A DNA stretch of 24,000 nucleotides, taken from Bacillus sp. CGMCC 1.16607 (lineage in GTDB: Bacteria; Bacillota; Bacilli; Bacillales; Cytobacillaceae). A model generated the notes under the pieces. The model was not told where the DNA came from. It saw nothing but the letters and a program-made list of their open reading frames with translations, and ran no database searches. Location of the stretch: the NCBI RefSeq assembly GCF_042683745.1, contig NZ_JBHUJX010000019.1:203978-227977 (forward strand), given 5' to 3'. How positions within the stretch are numbered: position 1 is the stretch's first letter; each line of letters opens with the position of its first letter. Positions 1,138 through 24,000 of the stretch are shown here, piece after piece. Made by a program: the position numbers and the translations under genes.

Positions 1138-1425
1138 AGAAAAAGCGCAAGCTCCTTGATCAGCCCCGATAAAGAAGACTGGTCGATTGGCGAGGTAACG
1201 AAGCCAGAGACCTAGTCGCACTTATGCAAACCGTTCTTTGGTTTGCCAAGCAAATGCTTCGCAGGCCGGAAAGTCGTTCTTTGACTTTTTGGCTGGCGAA
1301 CATTTGACCTCGAGGTCGACAAGGGCTCGGGCGTCCTGTCGCATTGTCGACACTAGTACATCCTGAACGTCGGGGCTAGGACGCTTGCGCTGGACAATTT
1401 TCTAAGTCCGAAAATGTTATACTTT
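1138..1425 (+). repeat. Family-A structured intergenic element, copy 1 (full length, about 288 bp)
   Basis: Left end GAAAAAGCGCAAGCTCCTTGATCAGCCCCGATAA, right end CGTCGGGGCTAGGACGCTTGCGCTGGACAATTTTC plus tail GTCCGAAAATGTTATACTTT. About 90 percent identical by eye to 14973-15254. Shares its ends with four other copies. GC-rich against AT-rich flanks. Confidence 0.9.
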
Positions 1426-1440
1426 CTTATTTTTTAAGAA

Positions 1441-2324: not shown

Positions 2325-4070
2325 TTATATTTTAAATCCAGCAGTAAGTTCTTTTAATTTTTTTGCCATATCCGATAACTGCTCTGTCGTACTTTCGATT
2401 CCTGTCATTGTTTTAAGCTGTTTATCAATGCTCTCGCTAATATTTTCTGTGCCTGCCGCCATTTCATTTGAAGTTAATGCAAGATTCGAAATAGCGAATT
2501 CGATATTTTTTGTAGACAATGCCTGCTTTTTGTTAGCCGTATCGATTTGTTCAATTTCACGTACAATGTGTAATATATGTTCATTTATATTCTGGATATT
2601 AGCAGTTACCTCTGAAGATTTATGTACCCCATTAGAAACTTTTTCTTCTACTAATTGAACTGATTTTACAGCAGAAATAGATTTTAACTGATTTTCCTTC
2701 ACAAGTTCTGATATTTCAAGTGCCGCTCGGTTACTTTCATCCGCAAGCTTTCTAATTTCATCCGCTACCACACTGAAACCTTTTCCAGACTCACCTGCAC
2801 GAGCAGCTTCAATGGCCGCATTTAATGCCAACAGATTGGTTTGTGCTGATATTCCCGTTATTATCTTGATGATATCTACAATTTTGTTGGATGACTGATT
2901 GAGTTCATTCATGAGATTTGAAACGTCTTTTGAAGAATAAGCAATCTCTGTTATGAATGAAACCACTTCAGAAATTTTGTCAGCACCCTCCATTGCTGCT
3001 TCCTGAACCTTTTTAGTATTTTCCGTTGTTTGCCTTGTTGCCATTGAGGTTTCATCTGAAAAGAGTGCTGCTTCCCCTAGGATTGATGTTGTTTCCTCTG
3101 TTACAGTTGCTCCCTGTGAAGTACCGAAGGCTATTTCCGCCACCATTTTCGATATTCCTTCAAGTGATTTAGTTGTAATAATTGTTGCTTCATTCAATTG
3201 TACACTTGAAGTTGAAATGGTTTCCGACGAACTAGCTACTTCCTTTATGATGGATTGGAGCTTGTCTACAAATAAGTCAAAACATTGACTCAGCTCCCCA
3301 ATCTCATCCTTACTATCATAACCAATCCGTTTTGTCAGATCGCCATTACTTTCAGATATTTCCTTTAATTTAGTAGAGACCTTTTTCGTTGGTATAACGA
3401 TGGATCTTGAAATAATAATAGACAAAATAAAAGTACTTATCGCCCCTATTATTAAAAGAGAGATGATCACGATCATTGTTATGCGATATGCAGCTTTACT
3501 GTCTTGATATGTATTCTTTGCGTCATTAATATGTTTATCAATAATTTTATCTAAAGCAGAGATAGCCCCTTTTCTCGTTTTATCTAAATTAACCAAACCC
3601 TCAGGAGGACCACTGGGAACCATGCTGCCGCCAACCTCTTGATCATTTGCAGGCATTCCTTGAATTTTGCCTGTCCCATTTTTCTCAATAAAAGTATCAA
3701 AGGCAGTGAAAAATTCCTTAAGACTCACTTGAAAATTTTCATAATCCTGATTGCCCTTATATTCTAATATCTGATTATTTACTGAAGATATATGGGTATT
3801 GATATCCTCTTGTATCGTTTTTTTCAGCTCATCATCATTACCAGCATCCATTATGGAATTCGCCTGGGACCGAATATACTCAATTTCGGATTTTATTGAC
3901 TCAAGTTTGACAATTGGAACAAGCATTCTATCATTTAAATTTTGGATACTCGCATTAATATTTGATAGTTGATTTATCGAGGTCACACCAATGATAACCA
4001 GAAAGAGGAAAAAGCAAATGGTCAATATACTTATTTTTTGACCAAATTTTAGATTTCGAAATATACTCAT
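2325..4070 (-). CDS. Methyl-accepting chemotaxis protein (two TM, periplasmic sensor, HAMP, MA domain)
   Basis: Conserved signalling hairpin [33 protein letters not shown]. Two TM segments flank a sensor of about 170 aa. HAMP region after TM2. Start set to the ATG at 4070 (GGAAGGA upstream); the track start at 4088 lies in the RBS. Confidence 0.9.
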
Positions 4071-4212
4071 TTGTAAACATCCTTCCAATTAAATTTATAT
4101 AGCATTACATTATTTCAAGGATATGTAAAAATCTCACTCTACAGCCAATAATTATAAGTGTAAATTGTTTCTAAAAAGAGACAAAAAAATGAATAAAGTA
4201 TGAATAAAGTCC

Positions 4213-4275: not shown

Positions 4276-5514
4276 TTAAATAAAAAACATCTCATCATTA
4301 AATAGATATAAAAAATTCTTCGTTTTCTCAGCTCTAATAAATCGATTTCTTCCTTGCTTTTTTGCTACGTATAAAGCATCATCAACTGCTTTTTTTAATG
4401 AATCTACTGTTTTTCCGTGATTTGGGAAAACAGCAACACCAGAACTGACTGATACGATGATTGAGTGTTCTAATATGATAAGTGGATTTTGTTTGTAATA
4501 CTCCATCAAATTATCATAAAGATTCTCCATCTCGTTTTCTAATGGAGATTTCATGATAATCATAAACTCATCTCCCGCGTAGCGGTAACCCTCAATGTTC
4601 TCCCCACAAACACTCTTGATTCCATCTGCCAATATCTTTAAATATCTATCGCCGATATCATGACCGAAATTATCATTTACCTTTTTTAAATGATCTGAAT
4701 CTATCATGATAAGGGTGATTTCTTGATTATTATCATTAATCATTTTTGATAAATCATCATGGAAAGCTCGGTGATTTTTTAACCCCGTTAATTCATCTGT
4801 TTGAGACATGACAAAGATCCTTCTGTATAGTCTGGCCGTTTCGATTGAATTGATCACCTGAGTCCCAATGATTTGCAGTAATTCTTCATGCTCTTTTCGA
4901 TAGGCAAAATCCGAATAGCTTTGAGCAGAAATCACTCCTCTGACATGATCATCAATAATGACAGGTACAAACAGACATGATCTAGTGATACCATCTGATC
5001 CATATAGAGCATTATATTCTTCTGATTGAGCTAACTGTTTCTGATGGACAATTTCCCTTGATAAAATCGCCTGGGTGGTATAATTATCACCTAATTCACG
5101 TATAATTGGTGGATAGTATTCCCCTTTATCCATAACAAACGTGAAATCTATCAATGACTCAGCTTCATTATAAAAAGCAATAAAAAAAGATTCCGTGTTC
5201 ATAACTTGAGAGACCATTTCATACGCTTTTTCAAGAAGTATATCCTCGTCCAATGTTTTACTACAAATTTGAGCAAAATCATGTAAAATTTTATAATGCT
5301 TATTCAACCAGCTCATATTTTCCATCTGATCATTTATTAATTCTAATTGAAGTAAGACGGAATCTACTATTTCTTTTTCTTCCCTATCTCCAATATGTTT
5401 TTCAAATTCTTCAAGAGTTTCTTTTGAAAGAATATTTTTTTGAACTCCAATATTTTTAAGCAAATGATTAATTAACGATAAAATCTCCTTATTTCCCATA
5501 TTTAACACTTCCAT
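4276..5514 (-). CDS. GAF-domain diguanylate cyclase (GGDEF domain with AGDEF active-site variant, no RxxD I-site)
   Basis: C-terminal GGDEF domain (ELTGLKNHRAF...IDSDHLKKVNDNFGHDIGDRYL...YRYAGDEFMII...ALYVAKKQGRNRF). Central GAF-like region. Start ambiguous between ATG 5514 and ATG 5499 (weak GGAAG RBS). Confidence 0.85.
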   Translation of the reverse strand: MEVLNMGNKEILSLINHLLKNIGVQKNILSKETLEEFEKHIGDREEKEIVDSVLLQLELINDQMENMSWLNKHYKILHDFAQICSKTLDEDILLEKAYEMVSQVMNTESFFIAFYNEAESLIDFTFVMDKGEYYPPIIRELGDNYTTQAILSREIVHQKQLAQSEEYNALYGSDGITRSCLFVPVIIDDHVRGVISAQSYSDFAYRKEHEELLQIIGTQVINSIETARLYRRIFVMSQTDELTGLKNHRAFHDDLSKMINDNNQEITLIMIDSDHLKKVNDNFGHDIGDRYLKILADGIKSVCGENIEGYRYAGDEFMIIMKSPLENEMENLYDNLMEYYKQNPLIILEHSIIVSVSSGVAVFPNHGKTVDSLKKAVDDALYVAKKQGRNRFIRAEKTKNFLYLFNDEMFFI

Positions 5515-5631: not shown

Positions 5632-5720
5632 AATTTTCGGTAACTGGCTGGCATTATCATTCGACTTAGCCCCTTTAGTTTTGCGTCCTCATTTTTCAAT
5701 GAGTTTGCCTTTTCTAAACG
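5632..5720 (-). ncRNA. c-di-GMP-I (GEMM-I) riboswitch aptamer
   Basis: Minus strand reads AAAAGGCAAAC-UCAUU-GAAA-AAUGA-GGACGCAAAAC...GGGGC...GCCAGCCAGUUACCG. It carries the conserved GGCAAAC, a GNRA-capped hairpin, GACGCAAA(G/A)C, CAGCC and GUUACC elements in the same order as Vc2-type GEMM-I RNAs. Confidence 0.75.
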
Positions 5721-7371: not shown

Positions 7372-7478
7372 TGATCTCCCAACTTTTCCTTTTTTTGTCC
7401 TAAGTCATAGGCTGTCAGTCACATTCCCCATTGTATTCACACCTCTATGTCCATATTCCTTAAGACAAACTCATTTGG

Positions 7479-7660
7479 AAAAAAATTCAGAAGCGCCTTG
7501 ATCAGCCCCGACAAGCAAATGCCGACCCAAAGAGGAGGTTTGCTCTTTAACTTCATCTTTGGGGCGCCATTTGATCTCGAGGTCGACAATAGCACGACGT
7601 CCTGTCGCATTGTCGACACTTGTACATCCTATACTTCGGGGCTAGGCGCTGGAGCTAGAT
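7479..7660 (+). repeat. Family-A structured intergenic element, copy 2 (medium form)
   Basis: AGAAGCGCCTTGATCAGCCCCGACAAGCAAATGCC ... CTCGAGGTCGACAAT...ATTGTCGAC ... CTTCGGGGCTAGGCGCTGGAGCT. It lacks the roughly 75-bp module that full-length copies carry between CCCCGA and CAAGCAAATG. Confidence 0.85.
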
Positions 7661-7842
7661 TACGAAAAACTCCTTCAGAGTTAACCACAACTTATAAACT
7701 ATATTTCTAAGCTCACCACAAATTAAACATTTGCCATATGGAAATCTGATTTTATAATAATGTTAGAATTAAACTCCGAGATTCCTAGTTTTTAAATAAG
7801 GCACTTTTCATAAATTTTGTTTTTCTTGAACAAGTAGAATGG

Positions 7843-14383: not shown

Positions 14384-14585
14384 ACAAGATACCTCTTTTT
14401 AATTTTTTTCAAATATATACCTTACTTCTCTCCATATCTTACCACTTCGTCTATGGTATGAGGGAGAAATTTGTATTCAAAGGAGTACGAGCACATATTT
14501 TTTTACGAAAAATCCAAACTAAAAACTGCTGCTATTACTTCAAAGGGAGTTGGTTTGTTTGAAATGGCAAAAGAGGATATTATCC

Positions 14586-14969
14586 ATGATCCAGGACCGT
14601 CAAGATAAAAAAATAGCACTTGCTGTTGACACCTCAAGTGTCGAAGTACGCTCTATTTTAATAAACAATATTGTGAAATTGTTTGAAACCGTGAAACCTG
14701 AAACCATCCTTGTCCAAGCAGATTTCAAAATCCGAAGTATCACTCCCGTAAAAGCGGATACCATCAAATATTATTCGCACGGAAAATCGTCCTATACGTT
14801 AGTATTAGAATGGGCAAAAAATGAAAATATCGATACATTATTCTACATTACCGATGTTACAGGTTATATTTATGAAGAAATAACAAGCGTGGATTACGAA
14901 TTATTTTGGTTAGTTCCGGATGAATTCCTTCCAAAAGTGCCTTTCGGAAAAGCGATAAAGGTTGCCTAA
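14586..14969 (+). CDS. Small hypothetical protein with degenerate VWA-like (DUF2201-type) domain
   Basis: KKIALAVDTSSVEV resembles a MIDAS DxSxS strand. ILVQADFKI and TLFYITDVTGY...ELFWLV follow the beta-strand pattern of the VWA-like C-terminal domain of DUF2201 proteins, but the metal-binding residues are degenerate. Start uncertain: ATG 14586 with AAGAGGA RBS is preferred over TTG 14550/14559. Confidence 0.4.
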   Translation: MIQDRQDKKIALAVDTSSVEVRSILINNIVKLFETVKPETILVQADFKIRSITPVKADTIKYYSHGKSSYTLVLEWAKNENIDTLFYITDVTGYIYEEITSVDYELFWLVPDEFLPKVPFGKAIKVA

Positions 14970-14972
14970 ATT

Positions 14973-15254
14973 AGAAAAGCGTAAGCGCACTTGTAAGCTC
15001 CGATAAAGAAGACTGGTTGATTGGCGAGTGTAGCGAAGCCAGAGACCTAGTCGCACTTAGCAAAACGTTCTTTGGTTTGCCAAGCAAATGCTTCGAAACC
15101 CAGAAAGTCGTTCTTTGACTTTTTGGGTTTCGAACATTTGACCTCGAGATCGACAATAACGCGACCTCCTGTCGCTTTGTCGACACTAGTACGTAGTACG
15201 TCCTGTACGTCGGGGCTAGGCGCTGGAGCTGGACAATTTTCGCAGTCCAAAAAT
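14973..15254 (+). repeat. Family-A structured intergenic element, copy 3 (full length)
   Basis: Collinear with 1138-1425 across all modules. Starts 3 nt after the stop at 14969 and ends about 5 nt before the convergent stop at 15260. Confidence 0.9.
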
Positions 15255-15259
15255 TTCCT

Positions 15260-16834
15260 TCAATTCACTAACACATCAATTAATGTTAATTCTGATGGAT
15301 TGCTTAAGGCTGTCGTCAACATTTGTTCGAAATCAGCTAAATCTTTAGGTCTTACTCCTTTTATTCCAAAGCTCTTCGCTAATTGAACATAGTCAGGGTT
15401 TCCGAATGGTGTCCCGAAAGTACTATTAAATTTTTTTAACATCATTTGTTCTTCCAATTTCAATTTTCCATCGTTTAAAATAATGATAATCAATGAAGTG
15501 CCTAGGCGTTTTGCCGTCTCGATTTCAGCAAAATTCATCAAGGCTCCGCCATCGCCAGTAATACAAATAACATGTTCATCTGGGCATGCTAGTTTAGCCC
15601 CTATCGCACCAGGTATCGCGATTCCCATTGATGCTAAACCATTTGAAATAATCAGACCGTTCGCCTTCTTTGGTTGATAAGTGCGAGCAATGGATACTTT
15701 ATGAGCACCTACATCCGAGATGACAATCGATTTATCGGACGACAGTTTTTCTATTACGCTTATTACATTTTCTATTGATAGTAAAGGGTTCACTTCATTC
15801 GTATCGATTTGATAAGATTGTTTGATCTGTTCTTTCAGATTCCCACTTGGAACCCATGGTTTAGGTGAGGGCTCAAGCTTATGTAAAAATTGTTTTACTT
15901 CTCCCACCAATTCTAATTGCACAGGATAATATTCATCCATTTCTGCTGGTAGTGCATCAATATGTAATATAGGGAGTTTCTTTTTATTCCAATCCTTTGG
16001 TAGTCTTTCAACTAAATCAAATCCTATAACAATCAGTAAGTCTGATTCATCTATCACACGAGTAGCTTCATCCTTCTCTTTAAACCCAAACGTAAAGTAA
16101 TTGAGTGGGTGATTTTTAGAGAGTATACCTTTAGCCGTAAAACTATGAATAGCGGGTGACTGAAGTTTTTCAATAAAGGCTTGTACTTCCCCTATAGCGT
16201 TTTGCCTAATCACTCCATTTCCAATAATAATAAGTGGTTTCTTAGATTGTTGAATGAGTGAATAGGCATCTTTTATTGACTGTTCCACTGGACTAGTTGA
16301 AGGAATAGGTATAACTGGTAACGGAATAGTTGAAATCATTTGCGCTGCTAAATTCTCTGGTAATTCTATTAATACAGCTCCTGGCTTTTCCATTTTTGCT
16401 AATCGAAATGCCTTTCTAATGATCTCAGCCGTCGTTTCGGAATTTTTTATTTGGACACTCCACTTTGTTGAAGGTTCAAAAATTTTAACTAAATCCAAAT
16501 ATTGATGAGATTCTTTATGTTGCCTTTCAAAACCTGCCTGTCCTGTAATTGCTACAACCGGTGAATAGTCTAAATTTGCACTTGCAATTCCTGTTAATAA
16601 GTTGATAGCTCCAGGTCCTAATGTGGCTAAACATACTCCAACCTTATTTGATAATCGACCGTAGACATCTGCCATGAAAGCAGCACTCTGCTCATGCCGA
16701 ACAGTGATATACTGAATGTTTTGTGATTTTGACAAAGAATCAATTAGGTCGACTGTTTCTGAGCCCATGATTCCAAATATATACTCGACCCCTTCATTTT
16801 CTAAACATTGAACCATTAAATCTGTAACCTTCAT
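15260..16834 (-). CDS. Thiamine-pyrophosphate-dependent enzyme (acetolactate-synthase-like)
   Basis: N-terminal TPP-pyrimidine domain (LENEGVEYIFG..G...DLIDSL...RHEQSAAFMADVYGR, GPGAINLLTGIA). C-terminal TPP-binding motif (GDGGALMNFAEIETA...IIILNDG). Start set to ATG 16834; the substrate cannot be assigned. Confidence 0.8.
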   Translation of the reverse strand: MKVTDLMVQCLENEGVEYIFGIMGSETVDLIDSLSKSQNIQYITVRHEQSAAFMADVYGRLSNKVGVCLATLGPGAINLLTGIASANLDYSPVVAITGQAGFERQHKESHQYLDLVKIFEPSTKWSVQIKNSETTAEIIRKAFRLAKMEKPGAVLIELPENLAAQMISTIPLPVIPIPSTSPVEQSIKDAYSLIQQSKKPLIIIGNGVIRQNAIGEVQAFIEKLQSPAIHSFTAKGILSKNHPLNYFTFGFKEKDEATRVIDESDLLIVIGFDLVERLPKDWNKKKLPILHIDALPAEMDEYYPVQLELVGEVKQFLHKLEPSPKPWVPSGNLKEQIKQSYQIDTNEVNPLLSIENVISVIEKLSSDKSIVISDVGAHKVSIARTYQPKKANGLIISNGLASMGIAIPGAIGAKLACPDEHVICITGDGGALMNFAEIETAKRLGTSLIIIILNDGKLKLEEQMMLKKFNSTFGTPFGNPDYVQLAKSFGIKGVRPKDLADFEQMLTTALSNPSELTLIDVLVN

Positions 16835-16910: not shown

Positions 16911-16953
16911 AAGAAAAGCGGAAGCGCCTTTATTAGCCCCAATAAAGAAGACT
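16911..16953 (+). repeat. Family-A element, copy 4 (left-end fragment only)
   Basis: AGAAAAGCGGAAGCGCCTTTATTAGCCCCAATAAAGAAGACT matches the first roughly 43 bp of full-length copies, then diverges. Confidence 0.7.
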
Positions 16954-17027
16954 AAAAAAAGTTTGTATAATTCACTGGCTAGTCAAGTATGATTAAGTTA
17001 GAAATTCATTTTTATGGGGTGGAAATC

Positions 17028-18586: not shown

Positions 18587-18703
18587 TTAATATCCTCCTC
18601 TAAGAAGAAATCATACATTTGCAATGATACTGTATTTTGGACAGATTGTCATTTCAATTACATATATTTAGAAAAGAATATGATGGAAATTTAATTAGTT
18701 GAT

Positions 18704-18823
18704 AGAAAAGCGGAAGCGCACTTGTAAGCCCCGATAAAGTAGACTGGTCGATTGGCTAGAGTTACGTCGGGGCTGAGACGCTTGCGCTGGACAATTTTCG
18801 TAGTCCGGAAATGTTATACTTTT
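18704..18823 (+). repeat. Family-A element, copy 5 (left and right ends joined, internal modules absent)
   Basis: AGAAAAGCGGAAGCGCACTTGTAAGCCCCGATAAAGTAGACTGGTCGATTGGC joined directly to ACGTCGGGGCTGAGACGCTTGCGCTGGACAATTTTCGTAGTCCGGAAATGTTATACTTT. Confidence 0.85.
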
Positions 18824-18827
18824 TACT

Positions 18828-18875: not shown

Positions 18876-19451
18876 TTAGGCATCCTCTTCTACCATTTCA
18901 TATTCAGAAGGGTCAATGAAAAAGGTATAACCTAAATAGATAACCATCCCTATAGCTGTTGTTAAAAATCCCCAGCCTAGAATAATTTGGTCAATCACCA
19001 AATAGTTATTACATAATTGGTCTTGGGATTGAATGTACAACCATCCTAATCCTAAAAATAGGATAGTAAAAAAAATAATGATGATATTTTTCCCTCTTGC
19101 CCCAAGCTTTTTCCAACTATCCCGTAACGGAATTCCCGCTAAAAAAGGTAGACTTATAAATTTAAACATTTCTACACCTTGTACCGTTAACGCCTCATCC
19201 ATTGTCCGCGGAAGCATCCAATACACCATAACAATTGAAAAGAGGATCATTCCGGGGACTCCATCACTATTCCATTTTTCAAAAAATCCTTTAAATCGTA
19301 CTTGGAAAAAACGTGCCATTAATAATCCGGCAATAACGAACATAGGCATTTGCATATGCATATGCATGATCATGACCGATTCCATAAACTTTGCTACAGG
19401 AGGAATAATTAAAAAGATAAATAACAATAACCCATAGAAAGATTGGTTCAT
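18876..19451 (-). CDS. Met/His-rich polytopic membrane protein, candidate metallation/assembly factor (orf1 of a norSY-senC-orf1-type cluster)
   Basis: 191 aa with about six TM helices. Motif MESVMIMHMHMQMPM at the start of TM2. Start ATG lies 3 nt after the SCO stop, with the AAAGGGGGA RBS inside the SCO gene end (translational coupling). Confidence 0.6.
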   Translation of the reverse strand: MNQSFYGLLLFIFLIIPPVAKFMESVMIMHMHMQMPMFVIAGLLMARFFQVRFKGFFEKWNSDGVPGMILFSIVMVYWMLPRTMDEALTVQGVEMFKFISLPFLAGIPLRDSWKKLGARGKNIIIIFFTILFLGLGWLYIQSQDQLCNNYLVIDQIILGWGFLTTAIGMVIYLGYTFFIDPSEYEMVEEDA

Positions 19452-20187: not shown

Positions 20188-20311
20188 ACTGTCCAGCTCC
20201 AGCGGCTAGCCCCTCGAGGTCAAAACCCAATCCGTCATGAAGGTTAAAGAACAACCTTCAAGCCGGCTCGTCTTTTGCTTGTCGGGGCTGATCAAGCCGC
20301 TTCCGCTTTTC
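20188..20311 (-). repeat. Family-A element, copy 6 (medium form, inverted orientation, inside the operon)
   Basis: Minus strand reads CGAAAAGCGGAAGCGGCTTGATCAGCCCCGACAAGCAAAAG...TTGAAGGTTGTTCTTTAACCTTCA...GACCTCGAGGGGCTAGCCGCTGGAGCTGGACAG. It begins 4 nt after the subunit I stop codon. Confidence 0.85.
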
Positions 20312-20314
20312 GTT

Positions 20315-22012
20315 TTACCAAGTCTTAAAAGGTGGTGAACCTGGAGGTGCATTTACAATCATATCTACTACTGGAATTACATAGGCCATTGCGACAACGA
20401 TGATCATAAGTACAACCCATAGTCCCCATCTTTCTGTCCAATATGGAGTTTTCGGTGCATTCTCTTCTTCTTCTGCAACTGGGAACTCTGTTACTCCTTT
20501 TGGTGCAAAGAACATCATATTAAATACGGCAAACACCTGAATCAGAACAGCAACCGTTAACACGGTTCCACCAATAGCTAACATCATCATATATGGATCC
20601 CAGCCTAATGTTGTTGCAAAGTCACCATATGTTGTATAGGAAGTTCTGCGTGGTGCACCAAACAATCCAACTGTGTGTTGAGCGCCTGACATTAATACCA
20701 TACCAATTGTCCAAAGAATCGTTTGGATAATACCTAGTTTATTTATTTGAGGTGTTAGTACACGTCCTGAAACATAAGGAACTAACCAATAAGAAACTCC
20801 AAAGAATGTTACGGCAACTGTTATACCTAATGTTAAGTGAAAATGGCCAACAACCCAGAGAGTGTTATGAACAACTTGGTCTAATTGGTTTGTGCTTTGA
20901 ACAATACCACCTGCACCAGCTGGAGCAAACGCTGCCATACCGATAAATGGAGCTAAGAAGCGAACATCACCCCATGGTAATTTCTTAAACCAACCAAAAG
21001 CACCTTTTCCACCTTTTGCTCTGCCTGTTTTTTCAAATACTCTAAACATCGCGTAAGCTGTCATCAATGATGGGAAACCGATTGCTAAACTCATAAATAC
21101 GTGCATAAATTTGATTTCTGGTGAAATCGCAGGGTCTACGATTTGATGGTGGAATCCACCAGTAATATTCATGATTACTAATGGAACGATAACCATACGA
21201 GTTAGTAGGTCACTCCAGCGATTACCACCGATTATTTTCGGCACGATGACGTACCATACAGATACAGCTGTTAAATACCAAATATTAACGGCTGTGTGTC
21301 CAAATGCCCAAAATAATGTACGTGCAAGCATTACATTAATTCCATCAACCCAACCATGAACCCATGGAATGATCATGAATAGTACTTCTGCTGCAACAAA
21401 TAATGTAGATCCTACTAAAAGAACATGAACGCCTGTAGCAAAGTAAGCTAAAATTGGTAGGTGTTGGCCTTTATGGGCTTTTCTCCAATTTGCTACTTGA
21501 ATAAAGATACTGATTGAATTCGTCCAAATACCTAGTACGATCAGAACTAATCCATAATAGAAAACTGGATGTGCTGCCAATGGTGGATAGAAGGTAAACA
21601 TAACAGAAGCTTCACCTAGTATAATCATGGTAGCAACCATTGCAACACCAAGAACTTCTAATGCAAAGCCAATCCAAGCCATTTTTCTAACGACCGGCAA
21701 TAGACCGCCTAATGTATGGGAAACACCTGCATAGAAGTATCCAATAGTAAAAGTGGCGCAAAAGACTAAAAGTAACAAAATTCCATGTGCGCTTAATACT
21801 TGATAATAATTAAGCCATGATGGCAACTCTAGCAGACCAGCACGGTTCAAACCTTGAACTAATCCTAATAGACCACCAAGAAGTAATGCGATAAAAGTGA
21901 CAGATAAATATGATTTCGTTATAATTGCATCTTGCAGGTTTGCACCTAGAACCTTATTTGTTTTTTCTTTAAAGACAGATTTCGTTTTTCCTGTTTGTAA
22001 GACTGATTCCAC
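20315..22012 (-). CDS. Heme-copper oxidoreductase subunit I, B-family (ba3)-like but lacking the cross-linked Tyr (sNOR/NorS-like candidate)
   Basis: Collinear with Thermus ba3 subunit I as I recall it. All six metal-ligand His are present (H76; H239; H288-H289 in GGFHHQ; H390 and H392 in GHFHL). The HPxVY motif reads H239-T-A-V-N243. GTG start with AAGGAGGG RBS. Confidence 0.9.
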   Translation of the reverse strand: MESVLQTGKTKSVFKEKTNKVLGANLQDAIITKSYLSVTFIALLLGGLLGLVQGLNRAGLLELPSWLNYYQVLSAHGILLLLVFCATFTIGYFYAGVSHTLGGLLPVVRKMAWIGFALEVLGVAMVATMIILGEASVMFTFYPPLAAHPVFYYGLVLIVLGIWTNSISIFIQVANWRKAHKGQHLPILAYFATGVHVLLVGSTLFVAAEVLFMIIPWVHGWVDGINVMLARTLFWAFGHTAVNIWYLTAVSVWYVIVPKIIGGNRWSDLLTRMVIVPLVIMNITGGFHHQIVDPAISPEIKFMHVFMSLAIGFPSLMTAYAMFRVFEKTGRAKGGKGAFGWFKKLPWGDVRFLAPFIGMAAFAPAGAGGIVQSTNQLDQVVHNTLWVVGHFHLTLGITVAVTFFGVSYWLVPYVSGRVLTPQINKLGIIQTILWTIGMVLMSGAQHTVGLFGAPRRTSYTTYGDFATTLGWDPYMMMLAIGGTVLTVAVLIQVFAVFNMMFFAPKGVTEFPVAEEEENAPKTPYWTERWGLWVVLMIIVVAMAYVIPVVDMIVNAPPGSPPFKTW

Positions 22013-23055: not shown

Positions 23056-24000
23056 CTACACATTAGCCGAAAAATAGTGGCTTCCTTGTGTTTGGAAAAA
23101 CCAATTAGCAAAATCTAATTGAGCCAATGGCTGACTAATGTAATAGCCTTGAACTTGATTGCACTTAATTTCATGTAAAAAGTCTATCTGACTTATTGTT
23201 TCTACACCTTCGGCTATTACTGTCAGTTGTAAATTGTGCCCCATTTCAACTATGCTTTTTACAATGGCCTTTGCTTTTTCATTTTCAGCTAGTTCTAAAT
23301 CCCGAATAAAGGTCCTGTCCACCTTTAAAGTATCAATAGGTAAATCTTTTAAATAACTAAGGGAGGAGTATCCCGTTCCAAAGTCATCGATTGAAATTTT
23401 TATACCCAAATCTCTTAGATCATAGAGCAGTTGAATAGCATGATCAGACTGCTGCATGATACTTTCTGTAATTTCCAATTCTAAATTTTCCGGTCTAAGT
23501 TTTGTTTGGGCTAATGTAGTGCGAACGATTTCGACTAGGTTGGGTTGGTGGAGCTGTTTAACAGATAGATTCACAGACATTAATATATCGATTCCATTAT
23601 CCTTCCAAGCATTCAATTGCCTACATGCTTCGGCGATTACCCACTCTCCAATTGAATCGATTAACCCTGACTCTTCTGCTATTGGAACAAATTCTAGTGG
23701 GGATATAATACCAAGCTCAGGATGCTTCCATCGTAACAACGCTTCCGCACCAACCACTTCTCCATTGGTAATACAACATTTTGGTTGGTATAGAAGATAA
23801 AGTTCTTTGTTTTTAATTGCCTTTCTTAGTCCTTTTTCAAGCTCGATTCTTCTTGCATACATTTCTTTCATATCTGAATTGTAAAATTGAATACGATTAT
23901 GATCCTTTTCTTTTGCAAGATAAAGGGCTGCATGTGAATTTTTTTTCAATGCTTCCAACTCAGTTCCATCCTCTGGGTATAAAGAAATTCCTATTCTTGG
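23056..24000 (-). CDS. GGDEF-EAL protein, partial (N-terminus beyond window end); EAL domain appears catalytically competent
   Basis: EAL motifs are intact (QPK...GAEALLRW, EITES, DDFGTGYSSLSYL, AEGVET, QGY). The frame stays open upstream of the track start to position 24000, reading ...RIGISLYPEDGTELEALKKNSHAALYLAKEKDHNRIQFY, which is the C-terminal end of a GGDEF domain. Confidence 0.85.
   Translation of the reverse strand, partial: PRIGISLYPEDGTELEALKKNSHAALYLAKEKDHNRIQFYNSDMKEMYARRIELEKGLRKAIKNKELYLLYQPKCCITNGEVVGAEALLRWKHPELGIISPLEFVPIAEESGLIDSIGEWVIAEACRQLNAWKDNGIDILMSVNLSVKQLHQPNLVEIVRTTLAQTKLRPENLELEITESIMQQSDHAIQLLYDLRDLGIKISIDDFGTGYSSLSYLKDLPIDTLKVDRTFIRDLELAENEKAKAIVKSIVEMGHNLQLTVIAEGVETISQIDFLHEIKCNQVQGYYISQPLAQLDFANWFFQTQGSHYFSANV

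Follow-up and report, generated by a model that had tools for sequence, protein, structure and literature searches.

Why does one and the same loop, GTTCTTT, recur on hairpins with different stems in a 24,000-nucleotide (nt) stretch of Bacillus sp. CGMCC 1.16607 (contig NZ_JBHUJX010000019.1, positions 203,978 to 227,977; the whole stretch is called the window hereafter)? Our analysis revealed that each of these hairpins is the tip of a module in an intergenic repeat of 120 to 290 nt, of which the window holds six copies. We are highly confident that the hairpin is a module of a mobile family that also carries the RNA motif Bacillaceae-1. Our preferred reading, to which we accord slightly less than an even chance, is that of a mobile repeat with a module resembling the antiterminator of ribosomal RNA (rRNA) operons, which would act as RNA, most likely through the NusB-S10 complex and its BoxA site. 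The six copies, designated A to F, and their parts are the following.

1138-1430, plus strand: copy A, long form; RNA minimum free energy (MFE) of -122.8 kcal/mol, fold z-score -7.5; 44.1 bits with the covariance model R1
1226-1246, plus strand: small hairpin of copy A, GCAAACC-GTTCTTT-GGTTTGC, with the first BoxA-like loop of this copy
1251-1306, plus strand: long hairpin of copy A, BoxA-like tip CGTTCTTTGAC at 1275-1285
1315-1375, plus strand: two-hairpin module of copy A with loops GTCCT and ATCCT, resembling Bacillaceae-1 below threshold
7482-7660, plus strand: copy B, with a variant 5' end and neither small hairpin nor 3' tail; z-score -6.3; 51 bits
7516-7573, plus strand: long hairpin of copy B, tip TGCTCTTTAAC at 7541-7551
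14972-15260, plus strand: copy C, long form; z-score -6.9; 54.1 bits
15060-15080, plus strand: small hairpin of copy C, GCAAAAC-GTTCTTT-GGTTTGC, with a single A.G mismatch
15085-15140, plus strand: long hairpin of copy C, tip CGTTCTTTGAC at 15109-15119; DNA z-score -9.3
16911-16955, plus strand: copy D, a fragment with the 5' terminal module only
18703-18826, plus strand: copy E, short form made of the 5' and 3' terminal modules and a tail, with no BoxA-like hairpin
20190-20311, minus strand: copy F, canonical 122-nt short form; 122.6 bits
20221-20277, minus strand: long hairpin of copy F, tip TGTTCTTTAAC at 20243-20253
1233-1239, 1276-1282, 15067-15073 and 15110-15116, plus strand, and 20246-20252, minus strand: GTTCTTT loops

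The five hairpins with a GTTCTTT loop that an initial annotation of the window had reported, as well as a sixth with loop TGCTCTTT, are all present where it had placed them. The window contains GTTCTTT 15 times where 6.25 are expected; none of 100 shuffles attained 15, and five of these 15 occurrences are the hairpin loops; the longer motif GYTCTTTRA has four matches, all of them long-hairpin tips on the sense strand of the element. The stem changes claimed between the long stems at 1260-1298 (16 bp, with one A.G mismatch and three G.T pairs) and 15094-15132 (16 bp, with one G.T pair) were recovered with pairing kept: position 3 turns from C-G to A-T and position 6 from G-C to C-G, which are two full compensatory changes, and A-T replaces the A.G mismatch at position 4 as well as two G.T pairs. 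The small hairpin at 15060-15080 was also correctly placed and its stems correctly described, apart from the A.G mismatch, which had been overlooked. In copy B, the hairpin at 7521-7568 forms 14 of 15 pairs around its loop (~7541), and in copy F the stem at 20238-20260 (minus strand) consists of TGAAGGTT/AACCTTCA. The long hairpins reach further out than these stems, down to a conserved CAAATG/CATTTG base (1251-1306, 15085-15140, 7516-7573, and 20221-20277 on the minus strand). Folded alone with DNA parameters, the hairpins reach z-scores of -4.6 to -9.3, and the whole elements folded as RNA reach -3.8 to -7.5.

Copy A runs from a 5' terminal module through an extra module, the small hairpin, the long hairpin and the RTCCT-loop module to a 3' terminal module ending with GCTGGACA at 1396 and a 3' tail ending with TATACTTTCTTA at ~1429. 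Its two RTCCT loops, GTCCT and ATCCT, are likewise found in copies B and C, and in both A and C they accompany two identical GTTCTTT loops lying 43 nt apart. Copy E scores 32.3 bits with 65 central model positions unmatched and 31 nt of sequence across them. The optional 3' tail measures ~33 nt after ...GACA and ends with TATACTTTCTTA (1397-1430 and 18794-18826 in the window, and loci L004, L007, L173, L174 and L176 elsewhere); it is an inverted repeat of the 5' ATAAGAAAAG, usually adjoins the terminator of a convergent gene, and occurs at about 10 of 91 ends only. The window copies sit between protein-coding genes and not in an rRNA operon leader or spacer. Copy C begins 3 nt past the stop codon of an open reading frame (ORF) at 14550-14969 (plus strand), and copy E sits downstream of the terminator of the minus-strand gene at 18876-19451. 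Copy F lies between the stop codon of a COX1-like gene (20315-22012, minus strand) and a terminator-like hairpin, and would thus be transcribed in sense. Two plus-strand ORFs that cross copies B and C, at 7447-7710 (87 codons) and 15072-15386 (104 codons), are almost certainly spurious and at risk of being mis-annotated as genes.

How far does the repeat extend beyond this window? A genome scan with a strict pattern yielded 8 loci and a metagenome scan with a three-part pattern yielded 62, both anchored on AAGCAAA and TTGACCTCGAG, for 65 distinct copies overall. The core was found by the genome scan in Psychrobacillus, Heyndrickxia, Evansella, a Paenibacillus, and a metagenome-assembled genome of Bacillus, and also in metagenomes. 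A covariance model built from 46 short forms (77% mean column identity) recovered all window copies, with 44 to 123 bits on the sense strand versus 10 to 20 on the antisense strand, and its search of 339 kb of fetched DNA returned 99 matches outside the window, of which 92 are distinct. The 122-nt core opens with (TA)AGAAAAGCG-N-AAG, the 5' strands of helices P1 and P2 with a 5-nt bulge between them, continues with a conserved CGACAAGCAAATG followed by the long variable hairpin, and closes with ATTTGACCTCGAG, the 3' strands of P2 and P1, and the end CTG-N-AGCTRGACA. The ends of the window family read GAAAAGCG...CTRGACA. On one strand, the element is a long irregular hairpin of covarying helices with conserved internal loops and a conserved apical loop, and its ends (P0/P1) are inverted repeats that close a multi-branched fold. 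The unpaired internal-loop sequences CGACAAG and GACCTCGAG are highly conserved, a conservation partly built in by the scan anchors.

Several side observations concern this core. G.A/A.G oppositions (AGC-GNA-AG/CT-GNA-GCT and CCCC-GA/GA-GGGG) are kept across genera and not made complementary (e.g., 20190-20311, minus strand), and these sites at the P0/P1 and P2/P3 junctions resemble tandem sheared G.A motifs; a reading of them as a K-turn was rejected on inspection, the geometry being unlike that of a standard K-turn. No family of Rfam 15 covers the core at gathering or permissive thresholds, copy A had no match among plasmids, and the 114 stretches of viral contigs given by a 14-mer contained no element among those screened. 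Likewise, no description of the repeat family was found in the literature searched by element sequences and for a 190-bp element, Bacillaceae repeats of the type of miniature inverted-repeat transposable elements (MITEs), and BoxA in repeats. Short-read contigs of the same strain (L009, L010 and L187, from the Logan assembly SRR35762316) appear to break at or near repeat copies, and the repeat family probably fragments assemblies of the Bacillus sp. CGMCC 1.16607 genome.

Is this fold under selection, and on which strand? Among the 92 distinct matches, 91.4% of the cells of the model-fitted alignment are paired, versus 74.3% after shuffling and 30 to 53% when partners are slid, and both partners have changed in 36 of the 39 pairs (485 cells). 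P2, for instance, switches among CCCC/GGGG, GGGG/CCCC, ATCGG/CCGAT and CTGC/GCAG. Comparison of the arms at the DNA level counted 123 G.T or T.G versus 9 A.C or C.A oppositions, with ~100 of the 123 coming from a GTT/GTT internal loop; without this loop, the model alignment gives 133 G.T and T.G versus 42 A.C and C.A. The sense strand is the stabler one in 61 of 68 hairpins (means of -23.7 versus -19.3 kcal/mol) and in 21 of the 28 hairpins lacking the GTT/GTT loop, and folding with DNA parameters is good on both strands and again better on the sense strand, as in the long hairpin of copy A (DNA MFE of -17.8 sense versus -14.8 antisense). Since the copies stand in both orientations relative to genes, a mutation bias of replication or transcription cannot explain the G.T excess on the element's own strand. 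The initial annotation had interpreted the hairpins as a recognised structure under selection on one strand and not as the decay of a repeat, and covariation, loop conservation and strand asymmetry support this view in the window and beyond it. As to its proposal of a fold in RNA or single-stranded DNA (ssDNA) of one strand, the asymmetry bears out the single strand; the folds are good with RNA and with DNA parameters, and energy therefore cannot separate RNA from ssDNA. The GTT/GTT loop is itself a conserved symmetric feature at the base of the long hairpin (ATGTTCTG/CAGGTTAT; e.g., L136 2581-2701), forming G.U, U.U and U.G on the sense strand only, and the 5' arm at this base, AAATGTTCT, is BoxA-like in its own right (AAAUGUUCUUCG in Geobacillus).

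What, then, does the loop display? The tips of 68 hairpins comprise 31 GYTCTTT (12 of them exactly GTTCTTT), 25 more with CTTT, 3 with TTTT and 9 that differ, and CTTT is kept in the loop region of 56 of the 68 while the stems drift. A CTTT-anchored matrix (n = 57) reads Y (C24/T25), G 52, Y (C32/T17), T 36, CTTT, R (G34/A9), A 43, C 47, which gives the consensus YGYUCUUURAC for the loop and its closing bases. On the sense strand, 29 of the 68 hairpins contain GYUCUUUR; on the antisense strand, no hairpin does. The central five bases of the tip are ~100% unpaired, pairing is partial or predominant at positions 1-2 and 8-9, and the apical stem is A-U rich. The initial annotation had missed that its hairpins are modules of a larger mobile repeat, that exact GTTCTTT is one variant of YGYUCUUURAC, that this consensus matches rrn BoxA, and that the tips differ in some lineages.

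In the leaders and spacers of rRNA operons, BoxA is bound by NusB and ribosomal protein S10 (NusE), which assembles the Nus antitermination complex. The BoxA of the Escherichia coli rrn operons is UGCUCUUUA, or ugcucuuuaacaauuua in its extended form (PMC2724277), and two papers describe rrn BoxA as the site bound by NusB and NusE (PMC2724277; PMC4807359). The consensus YGYUCUUURAC agrees with the first 11 bases of the E. coli BoxA, UGCUCUUUAAC, at 11 of 11 positions, and is also very similar to the BoxA of the Bacillus 16S-23S spacer; the copy B tip starts with TGCTCTTTA, identical to the E. coli UGCUCUUUA, and the copy F tip shares ten contiguous bases (GTTGTTCTTT) with the BoxA region of the Bacillus amyloliquefaciens spacer. 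The window tips TGCTCTTTAAC, CGTTCTTTGAC (twice) and TGTTCTTTAAC all fit the BoxA consensus. The Firmicute form of BoxA we take to be UGUUCUUUGAAAA or UGUUCUUUGAAAAC. The latter is consistent with GTTCTTTGAAAACTGAAT, a conserved spacer primer for mycoplasma detection (PMC3019172). Unlike rrn BoxA, the motif of the repeat occupies the apex of a long hairpin, its ends being paired, and the repeat is multi-copy and dispersed among protein-coding genes in both orientations. We hold it probable that the loop is homologous to rrn BoxA.

The second module of the repeat points to the same operons. Bacillaceae-1 (Rfam RF01690; Weinberg et al. 2010) is a pair of hairpins, each with a RUCCU loop, and its discoverers proposed that it "likely functions in trans", noted it sometimes or often beside rRNA operons, and suggested that it may be bound by a homodimeric protein (Weinberg et al. 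2010); eight copies are listed in Bacillus subtilis (BSGatlas). In loci related to the window repeat, Bacillaceae-1 scores 37 to 82 bits, and at nine of them (L125, L129, L137, L146, L153, L166, L172, L181 and L008) it precedes the core by 8 to 9 nt in the same orientation, with 51 to 82 bits. It is part of the same composite elements as the core hairpin, and resembles it as a multi-copy hairpin pair with conserved pyrimidine loops and covarying stems. The RTCCT module of the window scored 14.6 bits against RF01690 (E = 3.5, at 1305-1369), short of the gathering score of 35 bits; its GTCCT and ATCCT loops fit the two RUCCU-loop hairpins, a likeness that concerns the neighbour module and not the GTTCTTT hairpin. 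Conversely, the Rfam model spans the two RUCCU hairpins only, and neither the GYTCTTT hairpin nor the element ends.

Evidence for the rRNA link comes from flanking sequence kept in the supplementary alignment of Weinberg et al. 2010 (Bacillaceae-1.sto), where five occurrences each of the 16S 3' end and the 23S 5' end are seen beside the motif, all on its own strand and none on the opposite one. Bacillaceae-1 was seen at three sites of rRNA operons, always in sense: in the leader before 16S in Bacillus clausii, between 16S and 23S, where it precedes the spacer BoxA, and between 23S and 5S, immediately upstream of 5S, in Oceanobacillus iheyensis (accessions for the three positions, NC_006582, NC_004193 and NC_009725). 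The native 16S-23S spacer of B. amyloliquefaciens is ordered as Bacillaceae-1, then GUUGUUCUUUGAAAACUAGAUAAC, then 23S. This order, Bacillaceae-1 followed by BoxA, is the same as in the repeat, which for that reason looks like a mobilised rRNA-spacer antiterminator region. Moreover, other members of the repeat family stand in rRNA spacers and are there without exception in sense; those of Geobacillus kaustophilus are whole elements, complete with the ends of this family, that immediately follow either the 16S 3' end or the BoxA of the native spacer. Copies under NZ_AAOX… accessions, which we take to be Bacillus sp. NRRL B-14911, carry a GGC-GUUCUUU-GCC tip, GACCUCGAG, GCUAGACA and the tail AUAUACUUUCUUAUC. 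Within the literature searched, we found no paper linking Bacillaceae-1 to BoxA or describing the composite element, and as far as can be told the BoxA-like loop and the module order mirroring the native rRNA spacer are undescribed.

The mobility of the family is visible in what it has interrupted. In Heyndrickxia (L006), a T-box at 4375-4752 (minus strand) is interrupted by an antisense element at 4456-4577 (plus strand), which the alignment places between the specifier domain and the antiterminator, and in Psychrobacillus vulpis (L005), a T-box at 4383-4733 (minus strand) is interrupted by a sense element at 4505-4625 (minus strand). Both interrupted T-boxes still exceed the Rfam threshold. 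At L172 (6360-6770), an outer element encloses an inverted Bacillaceae-1-like segment with AGGA loops and a complete inner element; nested or inverted arrangements also occur at L129, L143, L148 and L153, and the head-to-head pairs recall REPIN doublets. Tandem arrays of two or three units are found at L176 1054-1422 (three units), L149 2100-2347, L165 1453-1710 and L179 1-226, the units being joined by linkers of 0 to 8 nt (...CTAGACA + ATAAG + AAAAGCG...). TAAG or TAG precedes most copies. No target-site duplication was recognisable in the flanks, and no transposase is encoded in the window or in the contig annotations examined.

Where do the copies stand with respect to transcription? The upstream gene is co-directional with the copy in 46 cases versus 29, elements are often in 3' untranslated region (UTR) positions, and at least 12 sense copies begin 0 to 6 nt after the stop codon of the upstream ORF (e.g., 20311-20317 on the minus strand and 14967-14975 on the plus strand of the window). 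At L002, L130, L133 and L169, this stop codon abuts or overlaps the modelled element start and is the TAA or TAG that usually precedes it. Such adjacency suggests either that stop codons are preferred as targets or that this position is selected for. An outward promoter composed of TAGACA ... TATACT was considered and rejected for its spacing of 19 to 21 nt.

We propose that a copy transcribed in sense, be it behind a stop codon, between operon genes or within an rRNA spacer, would have its BoxA-like loop displayed by the stem for recognition in trans, NusB-S10 being the most likely factor. The copy would then be a portable nut-like site, with a possible effect on termination, or a decoy for that factor, and its stems would be free to vary as long as pairing is kept. 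That the loop works specifically through NusB-S10 is suggested by its sequence, and we advance this step tentatively, as less probable than not. A still more ambitious extension, which we offer as doubtful, is that a mobile copy of the rRNA-spacer antiterminator (Bacillaceae-1 hairpins plus BoxA) plants recruitment sites or decoys for Nus factors behind stop codons, in operons, in T-box leaders and in rRNA spacers; Bacillaceae-1 would here be the hairpin part of a Bacillus rrn nut-like site, and the GYUCUUU hairpin a structured BoxA whose accessibility is set by its covarying stem.

Several points weigh against this interpretation. BoxA is normally linear and unpaired, whereas here the stem includes the R-A-C end and leaves the central 5 to 7 nt alone unpaired, and the assignment of GUUCUUUGAAAAC as the Firmicute BoxA is a presumption. 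Tips without BoxA-like sequence occur at L002, L005, L152, L154 and L186, and copy E has no hairpin. The pair counts were obtained from an alignment fitted to the model, among copies that are related by descent and not independent, and quasi-palindrome template switching could yield "compensatory" changes without selection; at L141, L146, L151 and L165, a three-base change of GTT to AAC makes the arm fully complementary. Regarding placement, copies between co-directional genes are 20 in sense versus 16 in antisense, copies A and E are antisense to both neighbour genes and beyond a terminator, and scans for promoters or terminators inside the elements found none.

The fold may alternatively be used as ssDNA, in which the hairpins and loops could be recognition sites of a strand-specific transposase of the HUH type (IS200/IS605, REP/RAYT), with the 5' TAAG or TAG as the target or cleavage site. 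Such an enzyme would account for the mobility of the element (T-box leaders, rRNA spacer, nested and tandem copies), for flanks in which no target-site duplication was found and most copies are preceded by TAAG or TAG, for hairpins that tolerate G.T in DNA and are stable with DNA parameters, better so on the sense strand, and for inverted head-to-head pairs resembling REPINs; yet the window encodes no transposase, orientation shows no clear bias (20 versus 16, taking gene direction as a proxy for replication direction), the rRNA-operon copies are all in sense, and the BoxA match and the adjacency of Bacillaceae-1 and BoxA in the native spacer are left unexplained, and we judge this explanation unlikely. 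A neutral or selfish palindromic repeat, whose loop would be conserved through a recent master copy and whose stems would be kept complementary by template switching or hairpin-directed repair, seems to us equally improbable. Many copies are indeed close relatives (the 46 short forms at 77% mean column identity), they stand in both orientations, and the one-step passage from GTT to AAC at L141, L146, L151 and L165 is what template switching predicts and is suggestive of a templated event. However, the loop consensus persists across genera on almost unrelated stem sequences, the unpaired CGACAAG and GACCTCGAG are conserved too (partly owing to the scan anchors), the non-complementary GTT/GTT loop and the G.A/A.G positions are kept unrepaired in most copies, and the G.T excess follows one strand of the element despite both orientations, which excludes a mutation bias of replication or transcription.

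An RNA with a reader other than NusB-S10 would share the strand asymmetry, the covariation and the frequent 3' UTR positions with our preferred reading. This reader may be the homodimeric protein proposed for the RUCCU loops of Bacillaceae-1, for which the paired identical GTTCTTT loops 43 nt apart and the two RTCCT loops of copies A and C would fit a dimeric binder, or the loop may pair with purine-rich targets such as Shine-Dalgarno sequences, the element being a sponge or a site of mRNA stabilisation or processing like other MITE RNAs. We know of no candidate protein, and the BoxA agreement over 11 positions together with the spacer context indicates a specific known partner; we give this possibility a small probability. 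CsrA has been raised as an idea for the reverse strand of Bacillaceae-1 (PMC4333381). As a candidate for the antisense strand of our hairpin, it was rejected, the loop AAAGARC containing no GGA. Pairing of the CTTT loop with a 5' AAAG showed no obvious covariation on inspection. Finally, GTTCTTT contains TTCTTT and could be read as a NusG-dependent pause signal, which in B. subtilis is reportedly TTNTTT on the non-template DNA strand, with an incidental hairpin. The first T required by this signal is C in 32 of 57 tips and T in 17 of 57, where BoxA allows Y, and the conserved G, R, A and C flanks are left unexplained, which makes this reading very improbable.

The analysis brings three things together in one modular element, namely the GYUCUUU hairpin, Bacillaceae-1 and the BoxA of rRNA spacers, and gives both the repeat and the orphan motif a testable function. 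If the preferred reading is true, a mobile element distributes a transcription-elongation signal genome-wide, and we know of no description of small repeats rewiring operon read-through in this way. Should the NusB-S10 reading be false, the family would still be a large and clean case of covarying helices around conserved loops, represented in Rfam 15 by its Bacillaceae-1 module only. To our knowledge, no explanation of the structured Bacillus repeats has appeared since publication of the B. subtilis genome.

One protein encoded in the window is 100% identical to the large subunit of acetolactate synthase of Bacillus sp. CGMCC 1.16607, its next relatives standing at about 74% identity. Apart from the repeats, the only Rfam match of the window at the gathering threshold is a cyclic di-GMP (c-di-GMP) type I riboswitch (c-di-GMP-I) at 5636-5719 (minus strand; 74.3 bits), which lies upstream of a gene for a GAF-GGDEF diguanylate cyclase (4276-5514, minus strand), so that a c-di-GMP sensor appears to control a c-di-GMP synthase gene. 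An EAL-domain gene (23056-23958, minus strand) and a gene for a methyl-accepting chemotaxis protein (2325-4088, minus strand) are also present.

How does the repeat compare with known systems? We take the Bacillaceae-1 copies of B. subtilis and Bacillus licheniformis to be the ~190-bp repeat reported in the B. subtilis genome paper of Kunst et al. 1997; their sequences appear as flanks in the alignment of Weinberg et al. 2010. Like the window family, it is a structured intergenic Bacillus repeat beside terminators, with Bacillaceae-1 as an internal module and terminal inverted repeats. Its ends are different (CAGCGTGTCGACAAACCC ... CACGCTGA), and it has neither the GACCTCGAG core nor the BoxA-like hairpin; the arrangement of CAGCGTGTCGAC...CACGCTGA around Bacillaceae-1 is not found in the window family. 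The 190-bp repeat is a sister chassis and not the same family. With REP/BIME-REPIN elements and the IS200/IS605-derived PATEs, the window repeat shares strand-specific hairpins and a conserved short 5' flank, REP sequences also forming inverted doublets and IS200/IS605 elements leaving no target-site duplication, of which none was recognisable in the flanks here. It differs from them in that no RAYT or TnpA gene and no GTAG/CGTC tag were seen, in the lack of a clear orientation bias, and in being longer and multi-helical.

A further comparison is with the MITE-like repeats, and bcr1, BOX, Correia/NEMIS, ERIC and RUP are all short non-coding intergenic structured repeats (PMC3733652). Inverted-repeat ends, the lack of coding capacity, multiple copies and variable locations are MITE features that the window repeat displays. 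The bcr1 of the Bacillus cereus group, the modular BOX of Streptococcus pneumoniae, Correia/NEMIS, ERIC and RUP resemble it in being multi-copy and intergenic, with terminal inverted repeats and long hairpins, and BOX also in being built of modules. They are co-transcribed with their neighbours. They have no detectable sequence relation to the window family, for which neither a target-site duplication nor a cognate transposase was identified, and what sets this family apart from them is its conserved loops and internal loops on covarying helices and its apparent rRNA-spacer ancestry.

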